IMG/VR virus record: IMGVR_UViG_3300005260_000002
Coordinates: 1-43,507 of that record
Source: a virus
Strand: one strand, 5' to 3'
Length of the DNA: 43,507 nt
Shown: positions 12,677-38,832 of the stretch, in pieces
Numbering within the stretch: the first letter of the stretch is position 1
How the letters are laid out: every line of letters starts with the position of its first letter
Position numbers and translations under genes: made by a program
Notes under the pieces: generated by a model
What the model saw: the letters and a program-made list of their open reading frames with translations, nothing else
What the model was told of the DNA's origin: nothing
Databases searched by the model: none

Positions 12677-12688
12677 GGCAACGCACTC
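12677..12688 (-). promoter_or_regulatory. Late-strand motif copy 1 (coding strand GA-GTGCGTTG-CC)
   Basis: Overlaps the stop of 12687..12962. 50 nt upstream of the CHAP ATG. Followed by hairpin GTCCCC/GGGGAC at 12634-12652. Confidence 0.5.
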
Positions 12689-12962
12689 AGGCGAACTCGC
12701 GGTCGATCCCGCGAGGGCCACGAATGAACCCCTCGCCGTGCTTAAGTTCTCGCAAGTCCTGCTCGATATTGAGGATGCGTTGGTCCTGCACCGCCTGCTT
12801 GGTGATGACCTCGTTCAGCTTCTTGATGTCGGTCTTGATTGTGTCGACGTCCTTGACAAGCTGTTTGACGATAGTTCGGAGCGTGGCGATTGCGCCGATT
12901 GCTCCGAACAGAAACATTCCGGCCTCGATGAGGTTTCCGGCAGTGATGGTGCTATCGAACAT
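12687..12962 (-). CDS. Membrane-anchored coiled-coil protein (91 aa), spanin-like?
   Basis: N-terminal TM (LIEAGMFLFGAIGAIATL) followed by a heptad-like K/D/I/L region. Lies in the lysis cassette. Confidence 0.6.
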   Translation of the reverse strand: MFDSTITAGNLIEAGMFLFGAIGAIATLRTIVKQLVKDVDTIKTDIKKLNEVITKQAVQDQRILNIEQDLRELKHGEGFIRGPRGIDREFA

Positions 12963-12990
12963 TTCCGGAAACCTATCGGGGCAAGCGTGG

Positions 12991-13290
12991 TCAGGTTCCG
13001 GTCACGGGCGCGGCGTCTTGTGCCTTAGCTGCGGCCAGTGCGGCTTGAAACTCCGAATCGTACTGCGCGGACATGACATCCAGCGCATCCCACTGCGCGT
13101 CCGTGATGTCGTCGCTGGATTGCAGGACCGAGATGATGTTCTGCACGATCGGCAGCAGGTCCTTGTATTCCTGCACCAGCACCGGGATGAGCGCCGCGAG
13201 GAGCTCGATCACCTTTGCAATCGTCGCAGCGGTCGCTCCGGGCGCAACGATCTGAAGGAGCGAGAGAAGTGTCGTGATAATCGCTTGCAT
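12991..13290 (-). CDS. Hydrophobic small protein (99 aa) in the lysis cassette
   Basis: GAGGGA SD. MQAIITTLLSLLQIVAPGATAATIAKVIELLAALIPVLV... Confidence 0.6.
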   Translation of the reverse strand: MQAIITTLLSLLQIVAPGATAATIAKVIELLAALIPVLVQEYKDLLPIVQNIISVLQSSDDITDAQWDALDVMSAQYDSEFQAALAAAKAQDAAPVTGT

Positions 13291-13300
13291 GTCCGTTCCC

Positions 13301-13732
13301 TCAGTTCTTGATGCCGTACTGATCCATGATCTTCTGCAGCGTCGCCGTTGCCGAAGTCAGGGTGTTGTAGAGGCCCGCGTCCCCCAGCGTTCCGGGGTTG
13401 GCTTTCATGAACGCCCGCAGATCGTTTCGGGCAGTGATGCCGGAATTGAATGGAGCTTCGACGGCCGCCGCAAAACCCAGCGGGCGGCACAGCGATGAAC
13501 CGCCGGTAACGCACGGCTGCAACCGCAGGACATTCGTCACAGAGCGTTCGGCGCCATTGAAGACGTTGATCGCAATGTAAACGTCACGGCTGTTGACCTT
13601 GGTGTTCGCAACCGCGCCGACGAAGTTCTTGACCGAGGTTTCGAACTTATCGAACGTGGCACAGCCACCAGCCAAGGGGCCGACTGCGAGGATGGCGAGA
13701 AGCGTTACTGCAATGCGAAGATGGCGGTTCAT
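13301..13732 (-). CDS. Lipoprotein (143 aa)
   Basis: MNRHLRIAVTLLAILAVGPLAGGC carries a lipobox (LAGG-C). Internal ATG of ORF 13301..13909. Confidence 0.7.
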   Translation of the reverse strand: MNRHLRIAVTLLAILAVGPLAGGCATFDKFETSVKNFVGAVANTKVNSRDVYIAINVFNGAERSVTNVLRLQPCVTGGSSLCRPLGFAAAVEAPFNSGITARNDLRAFMKANPGTLGDAGLYNTLTSATATLQKIMDQYGIKN

Positions 13733-13740
13733 GGCCCTGC

Positions 13741-14007
13741 TCACTTCTTGAGTTCGATGCCGGCCGATGCGGCAAGCGCAGGGTCGGTCGTGGTAACGGT
13801 GGTCGACTCCACGGCGTCGGTCGCCGCAACGATGCTCGACGTCTTGGTGGCGTTGGCCGCGATGACGGTACCGATGAGGCCGAGCACGCCGCCGATGATG
13901 GTCGCCCATGTCTGGGCATCCCAGCCGAACACGCCCTTGCCCGCCAGAAGGCCAGCGAAGAACGTGACGAGAGGGGCGAGCGTGGTGGTGAGCTGCGTCT
14001 TGTTCAT
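13741..14007 (-). CDS. Holin candidate (88 aa)
   Basis: Two predicted TM helices (LAPLVTFFAGLLAGKGVF and WATIIGGVLGLIGTVIAA). Immediately downstream of the endolysin. AGGGGA SD. Confidence 0.7.
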   Translation of the reverse strand: MNKTQLTTTLAPLVTFFAGLLAGKGVFGWDAQTWATIIGGVLGLIGTVIAANATKTSSIVAATDAVESTTVTTTDPALAASAGIELKK

Positions 14008-14017
14008 TGTCAGTCCC

Positions 14018-14509
14018 CTATTGATGCGCCAACACGAGCGCGTCGTGAATTTTCCCGGTGAACATCAAGCCCTCGCCTTTGCGGCGGCGGGTCAGGCCCG
14101 CGACGACCTTGCCGTTGTCGCGATTCCAGCGGGCCAGTTCGGCGGGCACCGCAGCCTTGTTCCCGGCGTTCAGCTTCTTCCACAGCGTGGCAGTCGCCGG
14201 GCCGCCGGTGTTGAAAGCCCACGACACCAGCGCGTCGAACTCGTTCTGGGTGATATCGACCTTGGTGTGGTTCTCGACCCAGCGCTCAAAGGTCGCCATG
14301 TCCCCCGCCAGCGCGGAATCGCAGTCCGCCACGGTCCACACGGTCTTGCCGTCGAAGCGCGGCAGGTGATGATTGGTGTGTCCCCAGCCGATGGTCAGCT
14401 CGCCGCCGCCGTCGAGGTACGGCTTGAAGAAGCCGGGGCGCGACTTCACCGCCGCCATGCAGCTTTCAAAGGCCTTGATGTATTCGAGTCCTGCCGGGCT
14501 GGTTCGCAT
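14018..14509 (-). CDS. GH24 lysozyme (endolysin), 163 aa
   Basis: GLEYIKAFESC...PYLDGGGELTIGWGHT has the E-D-T catalytic pattern of T4/lambda-type lysozymes. Confidence 0.9.
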   Translation of the reverse strand: MRTSPAGLEYIKAFESCMAAVKSRPGFFKPYLDGGGELTIGWGHTNHHLPRFDGKTVWTVADCDSALAGDMATFERWVENHTKVDITQNEFDALVSWAFNTGGPATATLWKKLNAGNKAAVPAELARWNRDNGKVVAGLTRRRKGEGLMFTGKIHDALVLAHQ

Positions 14510-14653
14510 GCCCCATGTCTAGGGCTGCCACCCGGCGGCTGCACCGCACCGAAGACACCGCTCATCGGCACGCTGTGAGCGGGTTGAGCCTTGACGGATT
14601 CTGCCGGGAAAGGCACGGTCTTGCGGCCCCAGCAAAGACAGGACACCTGCTTA

Positions 14654-15748
14654 ATGCCCCGAGTTTCCGTTCTAATGCCCACGTTCTGCCGAAACTCGTC
14701 TGGACATCTTGCCAAGGCAATTCGCAGCGTCTGCGCGCAGACCTTCACTGACTTTGAATTCTTCATCGTTGATGACGGCTCGTCCGATGGGAGCGCCGAC
14801 ACCATCCAGTCGTTTGCCGCCAAAGACAGCCGAATAAAGCATATTCGATTTGAAAAGAACGTCGGCTTGCCAGCGATCACGACTGCCACCGCGGTCAAGC
14901 AAAGCAGCGGTGAATTCATCGCCTGGATATTCGATGATTGCGAATGGGAACCGACGTACCTTCAGGAGATGGTCAAGGCTCTGGATTCCAACCCGGATGC
15001 AAGTCTCGCATACTGCATGTGCGAGGCAATTCAGAACTCAGACAAGCCGGTAATTTATGGCCGACCGCCGGATTACAAACTCCTCCGCAGCGGCGTGAAT
15101 TACATTGCAAACTGTGCGACGTTCTTCCGGCGAGCGCTCGTTGATAAAATCGGCTGGTACGATCCTAGAATTATTTTCGTGCGAACGTGCGATTGGGATT
15201 TCTTGTCGCGCGCCAGCTACGTCACGCCATTTATTTACGTGCGAAAGCTTTTGACCTGCGAGCACGGCCAAAGCCTCTCGAACTCACTCGGAAACACCTA
15301 CAGCGTCGATTTCAACTTGATGCATGAATCATCGCTGTGCGCTCGCCCTGAGCTTGCGCTCGATAGGATTCAGGGGCTTGATATTTTGTCTATCCCCAGC
15401 GCGATCGAAATCACGGACCAGCTTCTCGAATCTCACCTGCGGCTGTGCATTGAGTTTGCGCTTATCAGGTCGCGAAGCGAGATGTTTTTAGACATCGCGC
15501 GCATGCCGCACTTCAAGAAATTCGTCACCGACGCGCCGTCGCCGTCTTTCGGGCTGATGTTTCAGTGGTGGGTGAGGTCAATAAAAGAAGCCTCGGAGAC
15601 GGAAATTCGCAAGCGCGACCTCGTGATACAGGACATGATAAAGCACAAGCCCATCACGTCGAAGATCATTCGGGAAATCAAGAAGGGCCTGAAAAAGTTC
15701 TGGCGGCTATTAACGGGCACACCGAGCCACAAGGAGGCACGACCATGA
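14654..15748 (+). CDS. Family-2 glycosyltransferase (364 aa), opposite-strand moron
   Basis: VSVLMPTFCRNSSGHLAKAIRSVCAQTFTDFEFFIVDDGSSDGS is a GT2 N-terminal signature. Lower GC than its flanks. Confidence 0.8.
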   Translation: MPRVSVLMPTFCRNSSGHLAKAIRSVCAQTFTDFEFFIVDDGSSDGSADTIQSFAAKDSRIKHIRFEKNVGLPAITTATAVKQSSGEFIAWIFDDCEWEPTYLQEMVKALDSNPDASLAYCMCEAIQNSDKPVIYGRPPDYKLLRSGVNYIANCATFFRRALVDKIGWYDPRIIFVRTCDWDFLSRASYVTPFIYVRKLLTCEHGQSLSNSLGNTYSVDFNLMHESSLCARPELALDRIQGLDILSIPSAIEITDQLLESHLRLCIEFALIRSRSEMFLDIARMPHFKKFVTDAPSPSFGLMFQWWVRSIKEASETEIRKRDLVIQDMIKHKPITSKIIREIKKGLKKFWRLLTGTPSHKEARP

Positions 15749-15987
15749 TTGCAAACAGAGATGAATTGTTGGCATTGGCCGAATTTGTTAGATCAATGCC
15801 GGAGGACAAGAGATGTGGACGCATCGCCGACATTCTCGAATCGTTCGCCGGACCAACTCCGCCTCCGGTATTCGTTGAACTGAAGCCATGGCGTGCCGTC
15901 ATTGTTGACGGCGTCGAAGGGGCTATCGAACTGGATGACCCGAGGGTGGTTGGGCCAGTATGCCGGCAATTACGTGATGGCATATAA
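15745..15987 (+). CDS. Hypothetical protein (80 aa) coupled to the GT2 gene
   Basis: ATGA overlap at 15745-15748. MIANRDELLALAEFVRSMPEDKR... Confidence 0.55.
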   Translation: MIANRDELLALAEFVRSMPEDKRCGRIADILESFAGPTPPPVFVELKPWRAVIVDGVEGAIELDDPRVVGPVCRQLRDGI

Positions 15988-16001
15988 TATTTCTCAAATT
16001 T

Positions 16002-17589: not shown

Positions 17590-18672
17590 TCAGTGCGCCA
17601 CCGCGTTCGCGATGCCGAACCAAATCTCTGACGTGGAGACGACGAAGTAACAGAGCGCATCCTGCGCGCTTAGCGTTGGCGTCAGTATTTGCGTCGAACT
17701 GCCACCGGTCGCAAACCACAGCGTGCCGTAAGCGATCGTCACGACTGTGCCAGACGCGGGCTGGCTGAAGAATATGCAACCCTGCCGCCCAACCATAGCA
17801 CTCGTAAGCGTCGGATTGGCGAGAGTGAAATTCGTTGCGGTTACAAGTTGGCAGGAAAAATTCATTCCGGCCGTGAGCGATGGCGTCACCGTAGCCGTGC
17901 CGCAACCAGTCGGTGAGATGAGTCCGGCAGCGCTCCCGAAAACATTGTCGGAGGTCAGAACCTTGTTCGACGCAGCGCCCCAGATATCGGAATTCGCTGC
18001 CTTGTCCACGTTGACGGTGATGGCGCCGGTAGTCGTTACGGGAGAACCGGATTGCGTGATGCCTGTACCTGCGGTGACACTGACGCTGGTGACAGTGCCC
18101 GTCGCCGTAGTGTTGCATCCGAACGCATGGGTGGATGTGTTGTAGGTCAGAGCTTTCGTCGCGCCCGAACAACTTCCAATTGCCGTAGCGATAGGAGGTC
18201 CTGACGAGCCTGTGGAGTTCGCCAAAAGATTATCGGCAGCGATGTTTGCGAGAGAATACGAAAACGCGCCAGAGCCGGTGATCGGAGATGATGTGCCAGA
18301 GAGCGAAAGACCGGTGCCCGCCGAATATCCAACGCTTGTGACGGTACCGGTCCCGCCAGTCGTGATCGAAACGCACTGCATGCCGGTGCCGTTGACGTAC
18401 ACCAGCGCATGGGTCCCATCATTCGCGCAAGCCGGGATAGTGTTGAAAATCGGGGCCGTCGTCGTGCCTGTCCAATTTCCGTACACAGTATTGGCTGCAG
18501 CCGTCGTCGTGCCACCGAGAAGCGATTTCAGGGTGGTGAATGGGATGGCCTGCGCTGGACCGGGACTAATGCCGGTGCGCCCCAACACAGAGTTCGCTGG
18601 CAGGGTCTGCGCGAGCGCCAATGACGGCAGGAGCGCGGCGAGGAATCCGAGGACTTTGGCTATCTGTTTCAT
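17590..18672 (-). CDS. Tail-fibre-like protein with an N-terminal signal-peptide-like segment (360 aa)
   Basis: MKQIAKVLGFLAALLPSLALA-QT, then LPANSVLGRTG...AQAIPF. Two GTVTSV..AGTG(L/I)..G.P(I/V)T..GA repeats. Confidence 0.7.
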   Translation of the reverse strand: MKQIAKVLGFLAALLPSLALAQTLPANSVLGRTGISPGPAQAIPFTTLKSLLGGTTTAAANTVYGNWTGTTTAPIFNTIPACANDGTHALVYVNGTGMQCVSITTGGTGTVTSVGYSAGTGLSLSGTSSPITGSGAFSYSLANIAADNLLANSTGSSGPPIATAIGSCSGATKALTYNTSTHAFGCNTTATGTVTSVSVTAGTGITQSGSPVTTTGAITVNVDKAANSDIWGAASNKVLTSDNVFGSAAGLISPTGCGTATVTPSLTAGMNFSCQLVTATNFTLANPTLTSAMVGRQGCIFFSQPASGTVVTIAYGTLWFATGGSSTQILTPTLSAQDALCYFVVSTSEIWFGIANAVAH

Positions 18673-18695
18673 GCCCCGACGCTAGAATTCGGGGC
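18673..18695 (-). promoter_or_regulatory. Hairpin GCCCCGA/TCGGGGC abutting the fibre-gene ATG
   Basis: 7-bp stem and 9-nt loop. The arm adjacent to the ATG contains the only G-rich SD-like run. Confidence 0.5.
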
Positions 18696-18701
18696 ATCAT
18701 C

Positions 18702-18713
18702 GGCAACGCACCG
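18702..18713 (-). promoter_or_regulatory. Late-strand motif copy 2 (coding strand CG-GTGCGTTG-CC), 31 nt before ATG 18672
   Basis: Exact 8-mer at 18704-18711 in the 44-nt gap between the AP2/HNH-like gene and the fibre gene. Confidence 0.55.
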
Positions 18714-18716: not shown

Positions 18717-19235
18717 CTATGGCTGGGGGCGATGTTCCACGGCTCGCCGGACGCGCGGTCGCTTATTCATTCTCTGCTCGTGGTCAGTCGCCCAGCGGCA
18801 GTTGGCGGGCTCATAGTTTCCGTCGACATTGATCCTATCAATACTGTGCTTTGCGGACGGTTTCCTTCCCATATCCGCCAGAAAGTTCTCGTAGCTGTTC
18901 AGCCAGCGATCACAGACCTTTATTCCGCGACCGCCATAGCTTGGATACCGTTCCGTGTTGGGGTTATTGCAGCGCGATTTTATGTGACACCAAGCGATGT
19001 ATTCGCGCGCCCTTGCCGACTCCTTCCCGTCACCGTGCCGTGAAATTATGGAGTGCCAATTCTTCTTTTTCTCGCAACCGCAATTCGATGATTTCCCATA
19101 AGTGAGATTGAAGCCATCAACCACTTTTGTAGTACCGCAGTCGCATCGGCACAGATATTGCGGCTTTGATTTCACGACATCCGAAAGTTTAAGGACAGAC
19201 CACCTCCCGAACTTAACGCCGATTTCGAGTCGCAT
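18717..19235 (-). CDS. Free-standing AP2/HNH-endonuclease-associated DNA-binding-domain protein (172 aa)
   Basis: FGRWSVL...YLCRCDCGTTKVV...CGC and YIAWCHIKSRCNNPNTERYPSYGGRGIKVCDRWLNSYENFLADMGRKP...IDRINVDGNYEPANCRWAT. Low GC. ATG 19268 is an alternative start. Confidence 0.7.
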   Translation of the reverse strand: MRLEIGVKFGRWSVLKLSDVVKSKPQYLCRCDCGTTKVVDGFNLTYGKSSNCGCEKKKNWHSIISRHGDGKESARAREYIAWCHIKSRCNNPNTERYPSYGGRGIKVCDRWLNSYENFLADMGRKPSAKHSIDRINVDGNYEPANCRWATDHEQRMNKRPRVRRAVEHRPQP

Positions 19236-22200
19236 TTTCCATTCTCCGCTTCTGTTCATCTGTAGCATATTGATAGAAATCGCGCAGCCCCTTGGTGCTG
19301 AGCCGGGTGGCCGGGTTCAGCGTGGTGCGCACATAGAACCGCTGCAAGCCGGACGGGACGCCGAGTTCCGTCATGCGCGCTTGCGCGCCAGGAATATCGC
19401 CCCGCTGAATTTGCTTTCGGATGTCCGGCATGGCGTTCTGCACCGCAAAATCATGCTGCGTTCGAGCCGCGTACATCTCGCCCACGGCGGGCCCGCCCGG
19501 CGCACCCTTGGAGAAGGTGACCCCGAGGAACGGGCCGAAAGCCTGCGCCTCGTTCACTGTCTTGTCGCCCTGCCCCTTCACCAAGTCCCATGCCGCGCCG
19601 ATCTGGCCGGTCGGAAACTGCGACCCCGCGATGTGCGCCGCGATGCGAGCCACGTTCTTGAGGTAGCCCGCCGTGGTGTCTGCATTCGGGTCATAGACCT
19701 TGCGGCCGAAACCGGCATCGTTCGATAGGATTTGCCATGCCGGCCGAAAGATCGTCCCCTGCTTCTTGCGCATCATATCCAGCGGGCCGGTCATGTAGCC
19801 GGTGAATTCTTCGCCGATCTTGCCGACCGGGTTGCGCATGTAGATTGCAGTCCCATCCTTGGTTTGGCCGATCTTGAGGCGGTCACCGCGGCCCGGCTCA
19901 TTCTCGCTGGTCGAACTGAGTTGCTCGAGGAAATGGAACGGCTGCAACAGCGACAGCGGATGCTCCTGCACCTTCTGCAGCGCGTGCGACATTCGCTCAG
20001 CATAGCCGCGCAGTTCGTCGCTCAGCGTGTTGTCGCCGCGCATGACGTTGATGCCGCTTTGCAGCAGCGAGTTGCCGACGTACATCATTGCGATGTCGAG
20101 CCCGATGACAGCAGCAGCCTTCCGGCGCGCGAGGCTCTTGGCATATCCCACGGCCTCGGGATTGACCTTTCCGGTGTCGCGCTCGATCTGCGCGAGAACG
20201 TCTTTCGGCAGGCCAGTCGCCATGTCCTTGAGGACGCCGAGGTTGCCGAGCGTGAAGGACCGCGAGAACAGGAGCATGTTCGCGACCTTGGTCGCCCCGT
20301 CCGACATCGCCTCTTTCGGCAGCGCGCCCGCATATCGGTTCGCCCAGTGCGCCGCCATGCGAGATGAGGTCGTGCGGTCGATGCCCTTCGCCATGGCGTC
20401 GTCCATGAAGTTCTTGTACAGACCCACCTGCAAATCGGCGATGCGGTCCCACAGCAGCGTGTTGTGCCAGAAGTCGCCCGCCTTATCGACCGCGCGCTTG
20501 ACGGCCACACCAGCCGCCTCATCGAACAGCCCCGGCACCGCCGCGAGAACCTTCGAGGTCCACGACCGGCCCGGCGTCAGGTCCGGAGCTTCCATGATCG
20601 AGGTGATGTCCTGATTAAAGAATCGATGACCGATCGGCACTAGGCCGTTGTCGATCGCTTCCCGCATCAGCGGCACGTTGTTCTTCGCGCGGTTGCCCTC
20701 GAAATAGACCTTGAACGACGCCACCTTCCCCGGCATCGCGGGCATGGCGCGGCCCCACTCCACCGCGTTGTGGATCATCGGAGAGTTCATGATGAGGCTC
20801 ATGGTCTTGCCCTTGAGCGACATCATCGCGCCATATAGCGGGCCGCTTTGATGCGTCAGCACCGCGCGCAACGGCCCCTCGAAATCGCCGTGGACGTAAA
20901 TCGGTGCCTGCTCGAATACCGGATGACCTTCGGCATCCAGCACGGCCTTGCCTTGGTCGAACCTTGGCCGCCATGTGCGGAATGACGGATGGTCCATCGT
21001 GAACCACTTCGTGTCCGACCCGACGGGAATCGCACCCTCGACAACGGTGTCGGTGCCGGTATGTGCGCCGTAATCCTTGATGTTGTTGATGAGCGTGCGG
21101 CCAGCGATGGCGTCTTCCAGCTTCGATGTCGCCAGCGGCAGCACGCGAATATCGCGTGCCAGCATCGCCTCATCGCCAAACTTGGCCTTGGCCGCCGCTT
21201 CTGTCTCGCCAGATTCCAGATAGTTGCGCCTGAGCATGTTCGCCGTGCGCGTCTTGAGGTTCGACCCGATGCCGTTCAGCGACAGCGCCGCGTCACCACT
21301 GCCGGCCGATGCCGTGTTGATGACCATGCGGGGGGTGTACGACGGCAGTCCCTCGCCCTCGACCATCCCGATGTCGCGGGCGCGGAGCCATGCATTCTGG
21401 GCGCGGGTCTGCATCTCATCGACGGCGGCGCGCTCGGCAGGATCGAGGGTGGCAAGACCCTGGTGCTCGCGGAAGTGCGCCGGTTCGCCAAGCTGGCGCG
21501 ACACGCTTTCCTCGTCAGCGGCATTCCACATGCGCGTGCGCTGCTCGGGCGTGAACCGCTTTGCGATATCGTCGTCAATGCGGGACCAATCCCATCGGTT
21601 GCGCCGGAGCGCATTGGCGAAGTCCTTCACCATTGCGGTGCTGTCTCGTGTGCCCGTAGCCATCGGAGCGACGAGTTTTTGCGCGTCCCGGCCGATGTCG
21701 AGCAGCGTATCCCCGGCTTCCTGGAACGCCGCTGCCAGCCGTCCTGCGGGCTGTGCAGGCTGCACGTCGAGCGGCACGTCAATCGGGGGATCGGTTGCGG
21801 CCGCACCAAGGTTGCCCGGCTTGCCGCCGGTTTCGGTCAGCACCAGTTCATCGGCTGGGTCGAGCTTGACCTCGTGCGGCTTGGCGGTGATCTCGTTTTT
21901 GATAAAGGCGTCCGTCTGCGCGTCATGGATCGCCTCGGCCGGGTGGATGCCATCCTCGCTCCACATGCGCTTGAGGTTTCCCTCGGCGTGCGGAGATTCC
22001 ATAATCTTGCCGCCATTGGTGAAATCCTGCGGGCGCGGCAGTCCGCCGACAGGCTGATCGGCAATGCCAGCATCGGTCATAGCGGGACGCGAGAACCGGC
22101 CCATGCCGCCCTCGATCATCGCCCAGTTGCCCGCGTTGATGACCTCGTTCTTGGCGCGGTTCGCGGTGCCCTGCGAGCCACCGAATTCCTCGACGATCTG

Positions 22201-28085: not shown

Positions 28086-29378
28086 TCACAACCTCACGGT
28101 GAGGTATGGGTCGTCCGGCGGTTCGTCCGATCCGGTTTGAATTCCGTTGACCGTGCGCGCGTCGTCGATGGCGAGCTTGTACATTCCGGCGATGGTGTGG
28201 ATCTGTGAATCCGACTGCGTGAGCGGTTCGCACACCTCCAAACCGATGCGCGCGGCAAGCCCTTCGCAGAACATGTCGTCCATCAACGTCACGTCGGAGA
28301 TGTCGGCCGCGAAGCGATACGGGATCACATCACCATAGCGGGAGATGAGGTATCCGTTCTCATAAGCCCAATCGTTGAGGAATGGCCCGGCAGGCGCACC
28401 GAGCCACGATAGGCCATTATTGTTCGGGTCCTGCTGCGCCTCGCGCAGCCAGTTCGCAGGCAGCTTGAAGATGTTGCGCGTGGTGGCCTGCGATGATGGT
28501 CCGCATCCGATCGGATAGATCAGGTTCAGCGTCTGCAACGCCACGCCATTCGGGAATTCGGCGCCGCCGATCTGCAGCCATTTGATCGATCCGACACCGC
28601 CAACGAACACGGTGGTCCACGGATTGAGGACGCCGGTATTCGCCCAATGCACACCAGCATCGCTGACAGGATCGTTGCCGAGGTTTCCGCCAGCCAACGA
28701 CTCGTAGATCACGCCATCCGAAGCGCCCACCTTGTCGCCCGAGGCATAGGTGGTTGCGATATCGAATAGCGCCGGCGCAAGGTCCGGCTGATTGTTCGTG
28801 TTCAGGTCGATCAGGCTCATGTACGAAACGAGCCCGAACGAAACCACCTGATTTTTGAAATAGACCGCCGTGGCATCGTAGACCGTCGGCGCTGACGGTG
28901 AGTCCGAATTGCCGTCGATCAGCGACAGGTAGACGCGGTAGGTGCCATCGCCGACCGCCGTGTAGACGACCTCGCCGGGATAATAGGAAGCGGCGGAGTT
29001 CCACAACGACGCGGTGAGCCCGCCGAAATACTGCTGCCAGACGGCCGTGCTGAGCGGATCGTTGTTGAGATTGAATGGCGCCTGCGAAATCCAGATCGTG
29101 CCGAACTGGTCGGTGACGATCGATCCCACGAAATAGGTCACGCTCGGCGACCACAGCGTCGGCACTACAAGCATGGTGCTGATATCGACCGGCCGCAGCA
29201 CCGTCCGGCGGATCGAGAACGACCACACGTTGCGGCGAAGTTCAGCCCGGCGCAGCTTGTCGTAGCAGAACGCGACTTCCTTGGCGTTCTTGCTGATCTC
29301 GGTGAAGCTGGAAATGCGTGTGACGCCGCAATGCTGCAGCGCGCGGTTGGCAATGTCGATTGGCGTTCGAAACCCCAT
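28086..29378 (-). CDS. Tail tubular protein A-like / adaptor with an inserted repeat domain (430 aa)
   Basis: IDIANRALQHCGVTRISSFTEISKNAKEVAFCYDKLRRAELRRNVWSF N-terminal pattern, plus four ~40-aa aromatic repeats. Confidence 0.6.
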   Translation of the reverse strand: MGFRTPIDIANRALQHCGVTRISSFTEISKNAKEVAFCYDKLRRAELRRNVWSFSIRRTVLRPVDISTMLVVPTLWSPSVTYFVGSIVTDQFGTIWISQAPFNLNNDPLSTAVWQQYFGGLTASLWNSAASYYPGEVVYTAVGDGTYRVYLSLIDGNSDSPSAPTVYDATAVYFKNQVVSFGLVSYMSLIDLNTNNQPDLAPALFDIATTYASGDKVGASDGVIYESLAGGNLGNDPVSDAGVHWANTGVLNPWTTVFVGGVGSIKWLQIGGAEFPNGVALQTLNLIYPIGCGPSSQATTRNIFKLPANWLREAQQDPNNNGLSWLGAPAGPFLNDWAYENGYLISRYGDVIPYRFAADISDVTLMDDMFCEGLAARIGLEVCEPLTQSDSQIHTIAGMYKLAIDDARTVNGIQTGSDEPPDDPYLTVRL

Positions 29379-29407
29379 GCCTGACCATCTGTCAGGCTGT
29401 CAGGGTG

Positions 29408-29419
29408 GACAACGCACCG
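29408..29419 (-). promoter_or_regulatory. Late-strand motif copy 3 (coding strand CG-GTGCGTTG-TC), 31 nt before ATG 29378
   Basis: Exact 8-mer at 29410-29417. The CCTGAC/GTCAGG hairpin 29380-29396 lies between the motif and the ATG. Confidence 0.55.
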
Positions 29420-31681: not shown

Positions 31682-31704
31682 AGCCATTTACGCGGGGTGT
31701 CTAT

Positions 31705-31727
31705 GGGCGGGGAAAATGCCCCCGCCC
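31705..31727 (-). terminator. GC-rich hairpin GGGCGGGG/CCCCGCCC after the Cys-rich gene
   Basis: 8-bp G/C stem and 7-nt loop, with no clear U-run. Confidence 0.4.
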
Positions 31728-31736
31728 TAGAATTTC

Positions 31737-31748
31737 AACAACGCACTC
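31737..31748 (-). promoter_or_regulatory. Late-strand motif copy 4 (coding strand GA-GTGCGTTG-TT)
   Basis: Exact 8-mer at 31739-31746, next to the stop codon at 31747. Heads the 193-nt capsid leader. Confidence 0.5.
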
Positions 31749-32082
31749 ACTTGAAGCGGTCGGGATCGATCCGCACGCCGATCTGTGCACGGGCGGATTC
31801 TATGCGCTTCAAAGCCGCGGTATCGCTCAGTTCGGAAGACCGAAGCGCGCCCTTGCAGGGGTGCGCGCAGTAATCCTTGCCGCTGATCGCGCAGCCCTTG
31901 ATGTTGCAGGAATCGGCACACGCCGTCCGCGTCATGCCGGGAAATGGCACGTTCGATTTCGGTTCGGCTTTGACCTTGGCGACAGTCCGCTTCTTGGCCT
32001 TCGACTTCTTCACCGGCTTGGCGAGCTTCGGCTTCTCGACCGGCGCATCGAAAATGACCTCGGGTGCATCGCTCATGCTCAT
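31747..32082 (-). CDS. Lys-rich / Cys-cluster protein (111 aa)
   Basis: ATGA overlap with the scaffold stop. KPKLAKPVKKSKAKKR, then C-x3-C-x4-C-x7-C-x3-C. Confidence 0.6.
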   Translation of the reverse strand: MSMSDAPEVIFDAPVEKPKLAKPVKKSKAKKRTVAKVKAEPKSNVPFPGMTRTACADSCNIKGCAISGKDYCAHPCKGALRSSELSDTAALKRIESARAQIGVRIDPDRFK

Positions 32083-32972
32083 GCTCCCGTGATCATCTGG
32101 TTAAGACGGGTCATTTCACGACGTGCCGCAGGATCGCCCGCGTTGTATTTCGTGACCCACGCATTATCGGCCATGAGTTCGGTCTTGCGGGCCTGCGCGC
32201 CTTCGAGGGTGGTGACCTCTCCCGTCGGTCCGCCGAGGCCACGTTCGATGAAGGTATCCTCGCGAGTGTTCGCGCCGATCTTGCGCATGGCCTCCATCAC
32301 CTGATCGTAGCCGATGGTGCCTTCCAGCGCCTTCACGCCATCGGGCGAAATGCCGAGGCGGCGCGCGCCTTCGATGGCCTGCAGGTGGTTGTAGGCGAAC
32401 TTGTCGCCCCAATTTTTCTGCAGATTGTCCTTCTGCTCCTGCAGCTTCGCCGTGGTGACGGCGTTGTCCTGCGTCGTCTTGGATTCGAGCGCCTTGGCGA
32501 TTGTCGCGGCGACCGCAGATGCAGCCTCCTTCGGCACACCCTTGTCGTACATGGTCGCGCGCATGGCATCCGCGAGCGAGGTGTCCTTCACTGACGAAAG
32601 GTCGTAATCCTTCGCCTCTTTCGGTGCGCCGATCTGTTCGTAATAGGCGCGGACATCCGCCGGCGCGGCGTCCGCCTTAGGGCGCTTGATGACCTGATCA
32701 GGCGACACGCCGATCAGCTTTTCCGCGCCGCGGTACATCTCGGTGAGCTTCAGCCCGAATTCCTTCGGGTCGTTCAGCGGAAGGCCCTTGTTCTCCCAGA
32801 AGCCCTTGACCTCGGGAGCAATGCCGTCGTGCCAAGCAGGAGTCGGCGGTGGTGCCGGAGGGGGTGCGGGCGGCGGCGCATTCTCATCGAAATGATTGCG
32901 TGGGCGGCCGGTCTTCCAGTTTTTTGCGTGTTGGTGATAGGCGGGATTATTCTTTGGTGCTGTCGTCGTCAT
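32079..32972 (-). CDS. Scaffolding protein (297 aa)
   Basis: Sits between portal and capsid. Charged, helical, Pro-rich N-terminus (PPPAPPPAPPPTP). Confidence 0.65.
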   Translation of the reverse strand: MTTTAPKNNPAYHQHAKNWKTGRPRNHFDENAPPPAPPPAPPPTPAWHDGIAPEVKGFWENKGLPLNDPKEFGLKLTEMYRGAEKLIGVSPDQVIKRPKADAAPADVRAYYEQIGAPKEAKDYDLSSVKDTSLADAMRATMYDKGVPKEAASAVAATIAKALESKTTQDNAVTTAKLQEQKDNLQKNWGDKFAYNHLQAIEGARRLGISPDGVKALEGTIGYDQVMEAMRKIGANTREDTFIERGLGGPTGEVTTLEGAQARKTELMADNAWVTKYNAGDPAARREMTRLNQMITGA

Positions 32973-34991: not shown

Positions 34992-35430
34992 CCGGGTCTT
35001 TCGGGTCAAAAGTCGGGTCAAGCCGGCGGTCGGCGACCACCCAGCGCTGCACGCACTTGAACATCTCGATGCGGTCTTCGTCGTTCAGTTGCAGGCGATC
35101 CGCGAGACGGCGGAAATCGTCCTGCATGGCCTTCTCGGACTGATAGATCACAGCCTCCTTGACGACGTGGTGGTCCTTGCGGATCACGTCGGCGACGACG
35201 GCGCCGGTCTTTGCAACCTTCGCAGCGCTTGCAAGGCACGGCAGGGACGGCTCGATGTATCCGGGGAACACAAGCGGCAGGATCACGATGAGCGCGGCGT
35301 CGTAGGTGTGCGAAAGAACGGACAGCAGAACCATCGCCGTCTGCCCCTTCGCTTCCTTCAGCGCGCGGGCTTGCCAGCTTCCGCGAAGATCGAAAGCAAG
35401 CGAGTTCTCAAATCGCTCAGAGTCCAGCAC
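34966..35430 (-). CDS. Membrane-associated hypothetical protein (154 aa from GTG 35430; alternative ATG 35334)
   Basis: ORF track 34966..35430. Hydrophobic MVLLSVLSHTYDAALIVILPLVFPGY. Confidence 0.5.
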   Translation of the reverse strand: MLDSERFENSLAFDLRGSWQARALKEAKGQTAMVLLSVLSHTYDAALIVILPLVFPGYIEPSLPCLASAAKVAKTGAVVADVIRKDHHVVKEAVIYQSEKAMQDDFRRLADRLQLNDEDRIEMFKCVQRWVVADRRLDPTFDPKDPDAKRLTIN

Positions 35431-35626
35431 GCGGCGCGCCTCCGGTTGGACCGAACAACGACGTCACGGCATAGGACCCGGCCTCACCAAGCTGCTGTTG
35501 CTGCTGGATTTGGCCGAGCCGCCTTTTGCGCTGCTCCTCCGTCTCCTCGGACACCTGCTGGCTCAGCGCATCGCCGAGCCCGAGGGCATCGCTTGCAGAC
35601 GGAAAGCCGATGCTATTCGCCGGCAT
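35417..35626 (-). CDS. Hypothetical protein (69 aa)
   Basis: Internal ATG (MPANSIGFPSASDALG...) of ORF 35417..35704. Confidence 0.45.
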   Translation of the reverse strand: MPANSIGFPSASDALGLGDALSQQVSEETEEQRKRRLGQIQQQQQLGEAGSYAVTSLFGPTGGAPRAGL

Positions 35627-35966
35627 GGGGCGCCTCGGGCGCATCCACGGCGGCGAGCGCGTCATTGTAGGCGTTCTCGGCGTTGACCAGATTGGCCTTG
35701 GCATCAGCGAGGACCTGTTCGGCCTCAGCCAGCTTTTCGAGCTTGAGGTAGTGCGCGTGCTTTTCGTTCGAGAGGGTCATGAACTTCGAACCGAAACCAC
35801 GCTCGACGCGGCCATTGATGCGCACAGCATCCTCGCCGAGTTCGCGGTCTTCGAATTCACGGATGCGCTCTGCGGCAGTCAGCGTTTCGGCCGGCGCGTC
35901 GGTATGCACAGCTTCGACTTCGGGGGCGGTGTTCGCGGCGGTGTCGGAATGGGTTTCGTCTGACAT
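35613..35966 (-). CDS. Acidic coiled-coil protein (117 aa)
   Basis: ATG 35966 with a CCGGAG SD. MSDETHSDTAANTAPEVEAVH... Confidence 0.6.
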   Translation of the reverse strand: MSDETHSDTAANTAPEVEAVHTDAPAETLTAAERIREFEDRELGEDAVRINGRVERGFGSKFMTLSNEKHAHYLKLEKLAEAEQVLADAKANLVNAENAYNDALAAVDAPEAPHAGE

Positions 35967-35975
35967 GGGAAAACT

Positions 35976-35995
35976 CCGGTCATGTTGATGACCGG
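35976..35995 (-). terminator. Hairpin CCGGTCAT/ATGACCGG followed by AGUUUUCCC on the late strand, directly before ATG 35966
   Basis: 8-bp stem and 4-nt loop. The 3' arm contains the SD-like CCGGAG. Confidence 0.5.
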
Positions 35996-36018
35996 AACAT
36001 GCGCCGCCGCACGGAAGC

Positions 36019-36030
36019 GGCAACGCACCC
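36019..36030 (-). promoter_or_regulatory. Late-strand motif copy 5 (coding strand GG-GTGCGTTG-CC)
   Basis: Exact 8-mer at 36021-36028, in the gap between the terL stop (36035) and the next gene. Confidence 0.5.
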
Positions 36031-36034
36031 GCCG

Positions 36035-37507: not shown

Positions 37508-37592
37508 GGGCAGCGCGGAGTTCGTCCGCTCGGCAACCGGCCGCGCCAGTGGCACCCGGGAAACTTGCAAACGATGATCGGGCAGACAGCGG

Positions 37593-38129
37593 TCATGTCT
37601 TTGCCTCGGAGAACTCGCCCTCGATCACCGGCGCAGCCGGTCCGCCGAGCAATGCGTTCATCGGCACGCCGAGCTTGTCAGCAAGCCGCTTGATCTCCTC
37701 CATGATCGCCTTGCCCGACTGATCGCGGACGGTCTGGTTCACGTTGATGTTCTGCTCGACCGTGAAGCCCGCGAGCCCCACCAGCGTCTGTGCGGCCTTG
37801 AGTTGGTCCTTGTGCAAATCGTTGCGGACGATTTTCTTGATGGTCGCGATACCGAGCATCGCCGATCCGCGAATTTCCTTGTCCGCGCATTCCTTGATCG
37901 CGGCCAGCACGCCCTCGTCGTGAAACAGCCGATGCGCCGTCACCCGCAACGCGCCGTGGCTGCGATCCGAATATCCCGCCGCCTTCGCGATCTGGAAGTC
38001 CTTCGCTAGCGGATACGTTACAGCCGCCAGCGCAAACCGTCGCTGTGCCGGATTTAACGCCAGCATCGCGGGCCCGAGGCCGCTCACATCAGGGTCAGGA
38101 ATGGTCGGAGTGCCGGTCGCATCGTTCAT
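37593..38129 (-). CDS. terS: Terminase small subunit (178 aa)
   Basis: LNPAQRRFALAAV...QIAKAAGYSDRSHGALRVTAHRLFHDEGVLAAI is the Terminase_2-like HTH pattern. Immediately upstream of terL. Confidence 0.75.
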   Translation of the reverse strand: MNDATGTPTIPDPDVSGLGPAMLALNPAQRRFALAAVTYPLAKDFQIAKAAGYSDRSHGALRVTAHRLFHDEGVLAAIKECADKEIRGSAMLGIATIKKIVRNDLHKDQLKAAQTLVGLAGFTVEQNINVNQTVRDQSGKAIMEEIKRLADKLGVPMNALLGGPAAPVIEGEFSEAKT

Positions 38130-38158
38130 GCTAACAAATTACGAAACCGGACCTATCG

Positions 38159-38170
38159 GACAACGCACCC
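38159..38170 (-). promoter_or_regulatory. Late-strand motif copy 6 (coding strand GG-GTGCGTTG-TC), 31 nt before the terS ATG
   Basis: TTGTCC +16 nt + TAATTT + 6 nt + ATG 38129. No SD upstream of terS. Confidence 0.55.
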
Positions 38171-38282
38171 GAACTTTCCAAAACAGGCCGCCCAAAATTT
38201 CAGAAGGCCGATCCGAATTCTGGCAGAAAGGCGCGTGCGAGAAGGGGCAGTTGTAATATACCGCGTGGTTTTGATTTGCCGG

Positions 38283-38300
38283 CCACCCCCACCCCACCCC
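38283..38300. repeat. C-rich tract CCACCCCCACCCCACCCC (G-runs on the late strand), flanked by TTTTGAT direct repeats
   Basis: Read directly in the low-GC region upstream of terS. Confidence 0.6.
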
Positions 38301-38482
38301 GGTCTTTTGATGGCGCCGAGCCCTGGTATTGCTGCATTTCATCGACGTTTCATGCGCACCCGTCATACCGCATGACTGACGTTTCGCCGCTAAGTCATTG
38401 GTAATACTACGATGCGTTCATGATGGGTGATGATGAACACCTGCATCAGGCCATTCGTACATGCGAATGACACGCAACTGCG

Positions 38483-38671
38483 TTATCGCGCATGATGCCG
38501 CAACGAGGTCATTCCCTCACTTGTGCATTGATACAGCACAGCCTCATGCGTTGGGACATTCCATCGGAAGTGTCGAATGCGATCCAGCCAGATGGCAAGT
38601 CGGCTGCGTGGGCATTTCGCCATGACTTCATCATTCGGGAAATAGATGCGGGTTGGCGTCCAGTCATTCAT
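38483..38671 (-). CDS. Possible small protein (62 aa)
   Basis: GAGGAAG SD 5 nt before ATG 38671. MNDWTPTRIYFPNDEVMAKCPRSRLAIWLDRIRHFRW... A plus-strand ORF overlaps it in the same codon phase, so the call is ambiguous. Confidence 0.35.
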   Translation of the reverse strand: MNDWTPTRIYFPNDEVMAKCPRSRLAIWLDRIRHFRWNVPTHEAVLYQCTSEGMTSLRHHAR

Positions 38672-38820
38672 CTCGGCTTCCTCAATGACATTGAGACGGA
38701 TGATAGCACATCCTCGGCTATTCGCCTTCGTCGTGGTCCTCGCTCGCAGTACTCGCTGTGGAAGGAAGCAGGCGCACGCGGGGCCAACGCGCGAGACGAT
38801 GCGCTCGGTGATGCCGAAGT

Positions 38821-38832
38821 CACAACGCACCG
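38821..38832 (-). promoter_or_regulatory. Late-strand motif copy 7 (coding strand CG-GTGCGTTG-TG)
   Basis: Exact 8-mer at 38823-38830, in ambiguous coding/non-coding sequence upstream of the terS region. Confidence 0.35.

Follow-up and report, generated by a model that had tools for sequence, protein, structure and literature searches.

A conserved octamer in the late intergenic gaps of an uncultivated temperate podovirus is probably an extended -35 element of phage-specific promoters

Results

A conserved octamer in the gaps of the late region

The window, i.e., the whole 43,507-nt stretch of DNA analysed here, derives from an uncultivated temperate podovirus. Its late genes lie on the - strand and include terS (37593-38129), terL, a 117-aa gene (35613-35966), the capsid gene (ATG 31553), a tubular-A-like tail gene (28086-29378), a fibre-region gene (17590-18672), an endolysin gene (14018-14509; Phage_lysozyme) and a gene for a hydrophobic protein (12053-12628), the product of which matched no family. 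The p40 gene (40231-40737 (-)) is located upstream of the late genes in the early (replication) operon, on the strand shared with them, and a small HTH gene (38939-39238) is transcribed divergently. The gene after the 12679 copy of the octamer described below was formerly taken as a CHAP gene, but Pfam gave no CHAP match, and the endolysin is encoded at 14018-14509.

The octamer, or box, reads GTGCGTTG on the late coding strand and CAACGCAC on the + strand. The window contains seven exact copies of CAACGCAC, at 12679, 18704, 29410, 31739, 36021, 38161 and 38823, each on the + strand, and an exact-match count over the whole window found none in the opposite orientation and none in the early regions, in agreement with the original prediction. 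The chance level of about one copy per strand estimated there was close to that from dinucleotide shuffles (mean of 2.49 copies on both strands, about 1.25 per strand), and in this shuffled-sequence control, which it had also called for, at least seven copies were reached in only 2 of 100 shuffles. The copy count on its own is weak evidence, but the placement of the copies is not. All seven are inside the 1954 nt of non-coding DNA, as defined by our own gene model, that make up 7.3% of the 26.9-kb late region (P of about 1e-8). When the 8-mers of the late gaps were ranked, GTGCGTTG came first and all runners-up were shifted versions of it. One-mismatch variants of the box were not enriched in the window (53 found, 55 expected). 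Five copies begin 0-6 nt past the stop codon of the upstream ORF. The copy at 38823 falls within a 130-codon ORF (38483-38875), which we treated as non-coding because it has no homologues, has a low GC3 and overlaps a nucleotide-conserved non-coding element. The observation of a conserved box in the late gaps was confirmed as real. Conservation extends to the flanks, as had been noticed, but the bases listed for them need correction, as the family-wide flanks are sG-GTGCGTTG-CTG.

Promoter geometry of the individual sites

In the proposed arrangement, the TTG of the box would be the TTG of a -35 hexamer, a YANNNT -10 would come 16-18 nt after it, and transcription would start about 7 nt past the -10. 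Late promoter 1 (38790-38830 (-)) has the box at 38830-38823, the -35 TTGTGA at 38825-38820, an 18-nt spacer and the -10 CATCGT at 38801-38796, and the site has homologues in L048, L050 and L092. Its predicted start near 38789-38790 would drive a conserved structured leader, a non-coding element of about 105 nt (38690-38795 (-)) lying directly downstream. This element shows 82-87% nucleotide identity to loci with proteins that are 50-80% identical, and compensatory pairs are present in its alignment. A covariance model built from it matches only 9-10 loci, and a search of Rfam matched no family. On the other side, the divergent HTH gene, with its ATG at 38939, has a variant box, GTACGTTG, 36 nt upstream at 38895-38902 (38895-38941 (+)); this variant box is homologous to an exact GTGCGTTG before the same gene in L066, L092, L128 and L068.

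Late promoter 2 (38127-38168 (-)), before terS, has the box at 38168-38161, the -35 TTGTCC, a 16-nt spacer and the -10 TAATTT (38141-38136), which is followed by 6 nt and the terS ATG at 38129. An upstream tGAAAAttc tract is kept in relatives, and so is an inverted repeat, GTAAyTTGTTAc. A similar layout was found at late promoter 6 (18670-18711 (-)), which adjoins the end of an HNH endonuclease gene: the box at 18711-18704, the -35 TTGCCG, a 16-nt spacer, the -10 TAGCGT (18684-18679), 6 nt, and the ATG of the fibre-region gene at 18672, with a hairpin (18697-18671; z = -3.9) that contains this ATG. Late promoter 5 (29376-29417 (-)), before the tubular-A-like gene, has the box at 29417-29410, the -35 TTGTCC, a weak -10 (CAGATG/AGATGG) and a hairpin at about 29399-29377. 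In ten related loci (L001-L005, L026, L040, L041, L043 and L044) the box lies 39-51 nt ahead of the start of the tubular-A match, and 31-34 nt from the ATG of the gene. The spacing claimed originally is exact, with 31 nt between the box and each of the three ATGs (38129, 29378 and 18672). At these three genes (terS, with late promoter 2, among them) the predicted start of transcription is the A of the ATG, which would give leaderless mRNAs, and leaderless transcripts would explain why these genes have no SD and why the spacing is constant at 31 nt.

The remaining copies would give leadered transcripts. Late promoter 3 (35989-36028 (-)), with the box at 36028-36021, 6 nt past the terL stop codon, the -35 TTGCCG and the -10 CATGTT (36001-35996), is predicted to start near 35989 and to produce a leadered mRNA of the 117-aa gene with GGAG as the SD; CAyGTTC at this offset is common to about 12 relatives. 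Late promoter 4 (31699-31746 (-)) stands at the head of a capsid leader of about 150 nt, which has an SD region, CCCGCAAGGACA. Here the box (31746-31739) is directly past a TGA stop codon, the -35 is TTGTTG, and the -10 CATTTT (31718-31713) forms most of the 7-nt loop GCATTTT of a hairpin (31727-31705), while CATAGAC is conserved at the predicted +1 (near 31704). Stem sequences of this hairpin differ among the phages, and its z is < -2 in 14 of 16 of them. Box 7 (12626-12686 (-)), at 12686-12679 directly past a TGA stop codon and with TTGCCG as the -35, is the least promoter-like copy of the window: YANNNT was looked for at promoter spacing and is absent, and the ATG at 12628, served by a GGGGGA SD, is 50 nt away from the box. 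A degenerate sequence, GTGCGGTG, at 14549-14542 (14507-14549 (-)), 32 nt before the endolysin ATG 14509, is an uncertain eighth site, as the TTG is lost and the -10 is not clear.

The -10 hexamers had been called poor; however, five of them (TAATTT, TAGCGT, CATGTT, CATTTT and CATCGT) fit YANNNT, and only the copies at 29410 and 12679 are without one. The promoter of the RHH gene is as claimed: it is close to the sigma70 consensus (TTGAAT-16-TAGAAT), and 6 nt separate its -10 from the ATG at 39326. The early promoters of the phage carry -35s of the TTGAAT/TTGACA type.

Conservation of the box and its spacing in relatives

About 130 related metagenomic and prophage loci were used for comparison. 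They contain 136 unique late-strand copies of the box and 32 on the opposite strand, several of which are located 31-36 nt ahead of divergently transcribed genes; in L040 and L044, back-to-back palindromic box pairs lie between divergent genes. In the syntenic gaps of these phages, where the original prediction had proposed to look for it, the box persists in relatives with protein identities as low as 44%. The first ATG that opens an ORF of 60 codons or more follows the box at 31, 32 or 33 nt at 15, 20 and 17 sites, respectively (52 of 136), and at 76 of the 136 sites the box starts 0-14 nt past the stop codon of the upstream gene. The family-wide -35 consensus is GTGCG-TTGCTG. YANNNT is found 16-19 nt past TTGNNN at 68% of the sites; at box positions 27-30 it occurs at 69% of the ATG-abutting and 68% of the long-leader sites, as compared with 8% at random positions and 8% at one-mismatch box variants. 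SD-like 4-mers precede the start at 2 of the 52 ATG-abutting sites, versus 41% of control starts. In relatives that have no box, the late genes are SD-coupled and tightly packed. A TANNNT some 12 nt ahead of the start codon is an accepted mark by which leaderless genes are recognised in silico (PMC3160421).

Replacement of the box by TTGACA and concerted alleles

In the window, L048, L050 and L092, GTGCGTTG stands ahead of the structured leader. In L054, L066, L067 and L068, a canonical TTGACA (tTTGACA) precedes the same leader, with its TTG aligned on that of the box, and is located 25-26 nt before TCGCGCGT. These alignments show TTGACA as a natural replacement of the box at the same position. 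The box has three alleles, GTGCGTTG, GTGTGTTG and GTACGTTG, and their use is consistent within each genome. In L067, every site has changed together to GTGTGTTG (four late-strand copies and one divergent copy), and GTACGTTG occupies all sites jointly in L065 (four copies) and L080 (two copies).

A phage HTH protein that co-occurs with the box

p40 has 168 aa, is identical to P0121 and matched no Pfam, PHROG or NCBIfam family. The model of its N-terminal domain is confident (block-mean pLDDT of about 87-96 at residues 11-80) and has an XRE-like HTH fold, with TM-scores of 0.83-0.86 against HipB; R-M controller C proteins and ClgR were matched as well, with modest Foldseek E-values (0.015). The C-terminus consists of Arg-rich helices (GGKRRxKxMGKRARQRIAxHAARxRW). 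Among loci with upstream coverage, which the contigs of the GTACGTTG phages stop short of, 13 of 13 box-bearing and 3 of 15 box-less loci encode a member of the p40 family (Fisher P = 1.5e-5), and the three p40-positive loci among the latter have a variant box or none. Loci anchored on full-length p40 homologues have 2-4 boxes downstream on the same strand, and in an unrelated integrase/SSB/Prim-Pol/D5 element a box lies within 8 nt after the p40 homologue.

The helix-3 pattern GxxxK[LVI]L is found in most phages with the canonical box, and helix 3 is NQLQKCL in L067, and GNAAALL and GSAATVL in L059 and L079. Very different helices (GYTSKLL and GNAQKLL) accompany the same box. Because such dissimilar helix-3 subfamilies share one box, the covariation of helix and box is confined to three genomes. 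The norm for XRE-fold proteins is to bind, as dimers, to sites that are dyads or repeats; that the box is one asymmetric 8-mer counts against an XRE-fold reader. From its co-occurrence with the box, p40 is the best candidate activator of the box promoters, and a better one than the regulators encoded at 38939-39812 that were named originally.

Discussion

We consider it quite probable that GTGCGTTG is the upstream-extended -35 of phage-specific promoters with sigma70 geometry, from which several genes would be expressed as leaderless mRNAs, with p40 as the likely activator. The spacing, including the 31-33 nt to the ATG, the YANNNT hexamers, the near absence of SDs and TTGACA at the position of the box TTG argue for this reading, and together with the synteny they support the late-promoter interpretation, with TTG as the -35, of the original prediction. 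The seven box promoters would divide the late region of 26 kb among several transcription units, of which those with leaders would cover the capsid gene and the post-terL gene, both with an SD, the 12053-12628 gene and the structured leader RNA. GTGCG, the five bases directly upstream of the -35 TTG, would most likely be read by a phage-encoded activator. Such a factor, in line with the dependence on an activator or special sigma factor suggested before, is favoured by the genome-wide concerted alleles and the co-occurring phage HTH protein. p40, made from the early operon, would recruit the host RNA polymerase like class II activators, e.g., lambda CII.

The ordinary sigma70 geometry, the interchangeability of TTGACA with the box and the lack of a sigma-factor or RNA-polymerase domain in any window protein scanned would also fit a box that is read by the host RNA polymerase alone, with a primary or alternative sigma factor of the Hyphomicrobiales hosts, p40 having an unrelated role. 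We regard this as rather unlikely, because eight invariant bases that tolerate no one-mismatch variant are unlike a housekeeping -35, the alleles of L067, L065 and L080 changed in concert, the early phage promoters use TTGAAT/TTGACA-type -35s instead, and the co-occurrence of p40 and the box is perfect, the unrelated element included. An operator, at which p40 or the divergent small HTH protein sits over the -35 and shuts otherwise active late promoters, is distinctly improbable, although box and -35 overlap, a protein with an XRE fold co-occurs with the box, and the box in the promoter of the small HTH gene itself could mean autoregulation. The box is strictly promoter-oriented and a single half-site, unlike dyad operators; TTGCTG without GTGCG is a poor -35, and the apparently factor-independent promoter has TTGACA instead of the box. 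The p40 gene closes the early lytic operon, as the gene of a late activator would, and is away from the immunity region near the CI-like gene (1397-2110). From these features we infer activation rather than repression.

Readings in which the box acts in RNA or marks transcript ends have very low probability. A boxA/nut-like antitermination or RNA-processing signal, the alternative mentioned originally, would draw on the hairpins after several copies as boxB-like elements, on the resemblance of the Arg-rich C-terminal helix of p40 to N-type ARM peptides, and on boxes that start directly past stop codons. However, an RNA signal would have no need of YANNNT at a constant promoter spacing or of an ATG where transcription is predicted to start, and could not be replaced by a TTGACA -35; the hairpin sequences vary by site and are weak overall (mean z = -0.47), the box is unlike boxA, and Rfam gave no match. 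It is just as hard to credit that box and hairpin are the ends of late units (terminators or 3'-end stabilisers) and not their starts. The box abuts the upstream stop codon at 76 of 136 sites and a strong covarying GC hairpin lies ahead of the capsid leader, but the hairpins have no T run, a terminator scan picked up zero sites, most sites have no hairpin, and the 31-33 nt spacing to the ATG, the missing SD and the copies at divergent genes are left unexplained. The capsid-leader hairpin may be an added terminator nested in the promoter, which is compatible with the extended -35 reading. As an invariant and strand-biased octamer, the box could also be likened to Chi, packaging or restriction-avoidance motifs that have no part in expression; such motifs are scattered in coding DNA, whereas here seven of seven copies lie between genes, at fixed distances from start codons and -10s, and this reading, to which we give practically no chance, is refuted by the placement statistics.

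The proposed promoters resemble several known systems in part. Structurally, the N-terminal domain of p40 is best matched by R-M controller C proteins, ClgR and HipB, and no family was matched at the sequence level. C proteins and ClgR activate transcription from sites adjoining the -35; all three bind dyad-symmetric boxes as dimers, whereas the box here is single. As with the class III promoters of the T7 group, conserved phage-specific promoters would occupy the gaps ahead of the capsid, tail and fibre genes, and the virion genes have the same order, but the conserved part here is 8-11 bp, not 23 bp, in a -35/-10 architecture. The window has no gene for a single-subunit RNA polymerase and no non-structural ORF of more than 450 aa. 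In the T4 MotA/AsiA middle promoters and the Mu C and P2 Ogr systems, many short phage-specific boxes replace or supplement the -35, the host-type -10 is retained, and the factor is made earlier in infection. The multi-copy box at the -35, the host-type -10 and a factor made earlier are similar here. The present box differs from theirs in sequence and position, since that of MotA is centred at -30 and those of Ogr and C are dyads located further upstream, and no homologue of MotA/AsiA, Mu C or Ogr was detected among the window proteins scanned.

At the lambda CII promoters (PRE, PI and PaQ), a small phage HTH protein recruits the host sigma70 polymerase, as proposed here for p40; its short TTGC-containing site coincides with or overlaps a weak -35 and has the orientation of the promoter. 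CII binds TTGC-N6-TTGC (PMC2629481), whereas here one contiguous 8-mer (GTGCG and TTG) is found instead of a split direct repeat, and no second conserved stretch exists 6 nt downstream of the box. Furthermore, CII serves the establishment of lysogeny while the box would control late structural genes, and p40 has a long Arg-rich C-terminal extension and no Phage_CII Pfam match. Leaderless middle and late transcripts occur in the Thermus phage phiYS40. The lambda cI mRNA from PRM (PMC10491246) is leaderless, as are those of TANNNT-led bacterial genes (PMC3160421). The present sites share with them a -10 located 6-7 nt before the ATG, no SD, and a start codon at the predicted 5' end. In contrast to the known cases, it is major virion and packaging genes of an apparently single late operon that would be leaderless here, each with a dedicated box promoter, while box-less close relatives have the same genes SD-coupled.

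Placement of the octamer in the phage genome

An exact search of the window bore out the seven reported copies of CAACGCAC, all on the + strand and starting at 12679, 18704, 29410, 31739, 36021, 38161 and 38823. The octamer reads GTGCGTTG on the coding strand of the late genes, and is designated the box. Shuffled sequences were expected to carry 2.5 copies on both strands together, in line with the earlier rough estimate of about one chance occurrence per strand, and because 2 of 100 shuffles reached seven copies, the count alone is weak evidence. One-mismatch variants were not enriched in the window (53 versus 55 expected). Placement, rather than copy number, is what matters for the box. GC3, PHROG and Pfam served to build a gene model of the late region (26.9 kb), in which the non-coding share is 7.3% and holds all seven boxes (P ~1e-8). 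GTGCGTTG is the commonest 8-mer of the late-region gaps, every runner-up being a shift of it, and five of the seven copies start 0-6 nt past the stop codon of the preceding gene. The claimed spacing of exactly 31 nt between the end of the box and the ATGs of terS (38129), the tubular-A-like gene (29378) and a fibre-region gene (18672) held when measured. The gene behind the last box (12053-12628, -) had been labelled CHAP, a label that was not confirmed, as its product is a hydrophobic protein without a CHAP domain or other family match. A one-mismatch box, GTGCGGTG, is located at 14542-14549 (-), 32 nt upstream of the endolysin ATG at 14509, and is possibly an eighth promoter in degenerate form.

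The late strand carries, in this order, terS, terL, a T7-type portal gene (phrog_332), a 297-aa gene (32079-32972), the major capsid protein gene (phrog_3437), genes for tubular tail and internal virion proteins, an HNH endonuclease gene and the fibre-region genes. The 297-aa gene has only a weak protease-family match (phrog_18242), and its position is that of the scaffold gene in T7-like phages. The HNH endonuclease gene (phrog_374; 18717-19268, -) lies between the internal-virion and fibre-region genes, with a box promoter directly 3' of it. A family-2 glycosyltransferase gene (14591-15748, +) stands on the opposite strand within the late region, between the endolysin gene (14018-14509) and the upstream late genes, in a stretch of lower GC (~0.56), and looks like a lysogenic-conversion moron. 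The + strand encodes a CI-like repressor, recombination genes and an integrase, and the - strand at the high-coordinate end encodes RusA, a replication protein and small unknown genes. A tRNA search of the window found none.

When the late region was compared with isolated phages by megablast, nothing matched, and the best tblastn matches of the capsid protein to isolated phages were just 26-42% identical (pelagiphage HTVC010P type and Ralstonia RpY1). Therefore, the phage has no characterised close relative. Metagenomic relatives are plentiful, and two prophage-like relatives were found in Hyphomicrobiales and Alphaproteobacteria MAGs by a GTDB scan with terL. Some homologues of one early protein were found in Bradyrhizobium genomes.

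Conservation of the box in related loci

For the comparison, 46 loci were fetched by the tubular-A protein, 80 by terL and five from GTDB genomes scanned with terL, two of which were useful, and the late strand was set as + in each. GTGCGTTG occurred 32 times on the + strand versus 16 on the - strand in the tubular-A-anchored set, and 102 versus 19 times in the terL-anchored set. After removal of duplicates, 136 sites remained on the late strand versus 32 on the opposite strand. The boxes of the relatives occupy the same syntenic positions as in the window, namely ahead of terS, directly behind terL, at the start of the capsid leader and ahead of tubular-A, and this synteny is kept down to 44% protein identity. 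Among the 136 sites, 76 start 0-14 nt past the end of the upstream ORF, and the first ATG to open an ORF of at least 60 codons lay 31 nt from the box at 15 sites, 32 nt at 20 and 33 nt at 17. As a de novo control, any 8-mer recurring at least three times in a box-type context was collected for each locus, and only the box, its shifts and two single-base alleles were recovered. Context-restricted counting alone recovers the box in this way, as k-mer enrichment over whole loci is swamped by codon-usage words and misses it. A literature search for the octamer returned primer coincidences only.

The opposite-strand boxes of the relatives point at divergent genes, in keeping with a promoter element that has a direction. 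A perfect palindrome, CAACGCAC-NNN-GTGCGTTG, is present between divergent genes at three loci (L040, 1552-1570; L041, 1928-1946; L044, 9942-9959), and consists of two boxes placed back to back, each serving one direction. The distant relative L046 carries another strand-specific repeat, AGCAATAATCTTG, in 8-10 copies across the locus, which may be a different promoter system in the same role.

Promoter geometry and predicted leaderless genes

Beyond the box, the informative alignment columns are a G/A directly before it, C-T-G directly after it and an A/T-rich block at positions 28-34. Positions 6-8 of the box are an invariant TTG, which in orthologous promoters lines up with the first three bases of TTGACA. 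When this TTG is read as the first half of a -35 hexamer (TTGCTG), a YANNNT hexamer follows 16-19 nt on at 69% of the sites that abut an ATG and 68% of those with a long leader (118 sites), versus 8% of random positions and 8% of one-mismatch box variants; typical hexamers are TAATTT, TAACTT, CATCGT, CATTTT and CACGTT, and five of the seven window sites have one. In the class with 31-33 nt between box and ATG, the hexamer ends 6-7 nt upstream of the ATG at 36 of 52 sites, and therefore the predicted transcription start is the A of the ATG. All 52 sites have an ATG at the predicted +1, and SD-like 4-mers precede two of them, versus 41% of control starts. A TANNNT sequence about 12 nt upstream of the start codon is the standard in-silico signature of leaderless genes (PMC3160421). 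In sister phages without the box, the same genes are closely packed and have ordinary SDs.

The RHH gene (39326-39535) is preceded by a near-consensus sigma70 promoter (39292-39328, +), TTGAAT-16-TAGAAT, with the same 6-nt gap to the ATG, as had been described. Since this promoter ends 6 nt before the ATG, the RHH gene, which is early or regulatory, is probably also expressed leaderless.

In the window and in three related loci (L048, L050 and L092), GTGCGTTG precedes a conserved non-coding element of about 105 nt, while tTTGACA precedes the same element in L054, L066, L067 and L068, with TTG on TTG and the first conserved base following the hexamer at 25-26 nt. Therefore, the box sits at the -35 position of a promoter that is also able to run on a canonical -35. 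The element lies at the 5' end of the first late transcript in the window (38690-38795, -), downstream of the box at 38830-38823, and shows 82-87% nucleotide identity to loci with far more diverged proteins. It is apparently structured, and has compensatory pairs, a variable hairpin and a UCCUUCC stretch paired with GAGGA. Rfam searches, with gathering thresholds on the whole window and in E-value mode on 38100-38960, returned nothing relevant, and the element matches no family. It is limited to loci that also have a divergent small HTH gene. In the window, this gene (38939-39238) has a promoter homologous to those of the relatives, with the variant box GTACGTTG at 38895-38902 where the relatives have the exact box.

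A second block conserved at the nucleotide level (38132-38308, -; 70-74% identity across loci) includes the terS promoter and the sequence upstream of it. Within this block are the A/T tract tGAAAAttc and, overlapping both the -10 and the start, the inverted repeat GTAAC-TTT-GTTAC; the block could be an operator or packaging-related site.

The promoter reading of the original prediction is thus supported by the YANNNT geometry, the syntenic conservation, the ATG spacing and the TTGACA swap, and we regard it as likely that the box is a promoter element. From the same kind of sequence comparison, terS, the tubular-A-like gene and the fibre-region gene are probably leaderless in this phage.

Hairpins at the capsid promoters

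In the promoters of the capsid class, the -10 hexamer forms the loop of a GC hairpin of 8-9 bp, whose stem varies between phages in a covarying manner. The hairpin of the window (31705-31727, -) has a 7-nt loop, GCATTTT, and 15 related loci share the structure. Per-sequence folding gave z < -2 in 14 of the 16 sequences, with a mean z of -3.4. RNAalifold predicted no pairs on the capsid-promoter alignment because of a 1-nt register shift in it. At the fibre and tubular-A sites of the window, z was -3.9 and -1.9, respectively, and the hairpin extends to the ATG. A general hairpin requirement was dropped, as the mean z was just -0.47 over 52 ATG-abutting sites, and the hairpin is strong in the capsid class only. 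It could belong to the upstream transcript, as an attenuator or 3'-end structure that is nested in the next promoter, or could silence the SD-less ATG in read-through RNA.

A candidate reader of the box

The box exists as alleles that change in concert within a genome. L067, whose terL is 78% identical to that of the window, has GTGTGTTG at four of four syntenic late sites and before the divergent HTH gene, and GTACGTTG is present at four sites in L065 and two in L080. For a co-occurrence test, all ORFs upstream of terS were clustered in 28 loci. One family, p40, was present in 13 of 13 box-bearing loci and in 3 of 15 non-box loci (Fisher P = 1.5e-5). Its member in the window is the ORF at 40231-40827, of which the true product is a 168-aa protein (40231-40737, -), identical to protein P0121. 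The three exceptions are L067, with its variant box, and L059 and L079, in which the single promoter before terS has TTGCAT without the GTGCG extension. Loci anchored on full-length p40 homologues have 2-4 boxes downstream on the same strand. A 39%-identical homologue was found in an unrelated integrase/SSB/Prim-Pol/D5-helicase element, with a box 8 nt past its stop (homologue then box, L133 7486-8030 and L134 7858-8400). This occurrence in a different mobile element suggests that the activator and the box form a portable module.

For the p40 sequence, Pfam gave nothing at E <= 1 except chance matches, and neither p40 nor 120 homologues contained a domain or matched the HTH_3/HTH_31-type models. 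PHROG and NCBIfam gave no match to p40, tblastn gave none in isolated phages, and PDB sequence searches with p40, its profile, the small HTH protein and a 145-aa neighbour found nothing. In the AlphaFold model, the N-terminal domain is a five-helix XRE/Cro-type HTH (block-mean pLDDT ~87-96, residues 11-80), which Foldseek superimposed on HipB with a TM-score of 0.83-0.86 and an rmsd of 1.8-2.0 A, and also matched to the restriction-modification controller C.Esp1396I, ClgR and P22 c2. The C-terminus is an arginine-rich helical region. In helix 3, most phages with the canonical box retain GxxxK[LVI]L; the variants are NQLQKCL in L067 and GNAAALL and GSAATVL in L059 and L079. This covariation of helix 3 with the box comes from three genomes, and the canonical-box subfamilies vary widely elsewhere in the helix, so that it is suggestive only. 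The divergent small HTH protein was dropped as box reader, since its detection was limited to about 10 loci, a smaller number than for p40. The chance that p40 is the reader of the box appears evenly balanced.

Proposed mechanism and alternative explanations

In the proposed mechanism, p40 would be made from the early/replication operon, bind GTGCG beside the -35 TTG and recruit the host polymerase by class II-type activation. The seven promoters would then fire along the late strand, yielding leaderless mRNAs for terS, tubular-A and the fibre-region gene, mRNAs with a leader and SD for capsid, the gene after terL and the gene at 12053-12628, and a structured leader RNA from the first promoter. 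Taken jointly, p40 may found an undescribed late-activator family, in which a protein with an XRE-fold head and an arginine-rich helical tail would redirect the host RNA polymerase to a box of 8 bp that is fused with the -35 TTG. The alleles GTGCGTTG, GTGTGTTG and GTACGTTG would be matched ones, produced by co-evolution of the box with its activator, and the SD-coupled late operon would have been converted to a string of separately fired, largely leaderless units, some of them nested in hairpins with the -10 in the loop. We put this joint reading forward tentatively, rating its prospects a little short of even.

A host factor could read the box instead, in agreement with the promoter geometry. 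The concerted alleles and the link with p40 are at odds with this, and together they point to a phage-encoded factor; moreover, eight invariant bases without functional-looking one-mismatch copies would be unlike a housekeeping -35. The box as an operator for a repressor is disfavoured by its strict orientation, its single half-site and the position of p40. An ECF/EcfG promoter (an upstream GGAAC-like element with CGTT as -10) was dropped, as its spacing varied inconsistently from 23 to 34 nt and nothing is conserved upstream of position -2. For a sigma54 promoter with TTGC as -12, inspection found no TGGCAC at the required spacing.

Action of the box in RNA had been offered as a fallback, either as a boxA/nut-like signal or in processing. 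The geometry places the box upstream of the transcription start, the hairpins are unconserved in sequence and weak overall, and Rfam gave no match, all of which speaks against the former; processing, like any RNA-level reading, leaves the -10 element, the ATG at +1 and the TTGACA swap unexplained. Against a role as terminators, 0 of 7 sites were found in a terminator scan and no T run follows the hairpins. A Chi-like or packaging motif is excluded by the placement of the box.

Significance and comparison with known systems

To our knowledge, how tailed phages that lack an RNA polymerase of their own control their late genes is understood mechanistically for a handful of models only, none of them from soil Alphaproteobacteria. 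The present hypothesis is complete, covering the box, the promoter geometry, the predicted starts, a candidate activator and natural specificity variants, and applies to a large group of uncultivated podoviruses that have relatives in Bradyrhizobium and Hyphomicrobiales genomes. Sister phages organise the same virion genes in two ways, as an SD-coupled single operon or as box-driven, leaderless units, which bears on the origin of leaderless translation and on the setting of gene dosage in late operons. Gene callers that require an SD will misplace the starts of box-driven genes. The matched box alleles are possible orthogonal expression parts, and the joint reading, if true, would provide Bradyrhizobium-type Alphaproteobacteria with an orthogonal promoter-activator set that is ready for use.

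No sigma, Q, N, CII, Ogr or MotA-like family was found among all the candidate regulators with Pfam, PHROG and NCBIfam. Family scans gave no match to a single-subunit RNA polymerase, and no ORF of suitable size exists beyond the virion genes. The ~23 bp conserved in T7-like promoters contrast with only ~11 bp at the box sites. Lambda CII acts at TTGC-N6-TTGC sites by class II-type activation (PMC2629481). These sites straddle the -35, whereas the box profile has no second TTGC 6 nt downstream, and position by position its information falls to background past position 10. The lambda activator belongs to the Phage_CII family, unlike p40, which is without a Pfam or NCBIfam match. Activator-dependent phage late promoters and leaderless genes are known kinds of system; no description is known of the box and its matched alleles, of the family of the candidate activator, or of leaderless late genes used wholesale.
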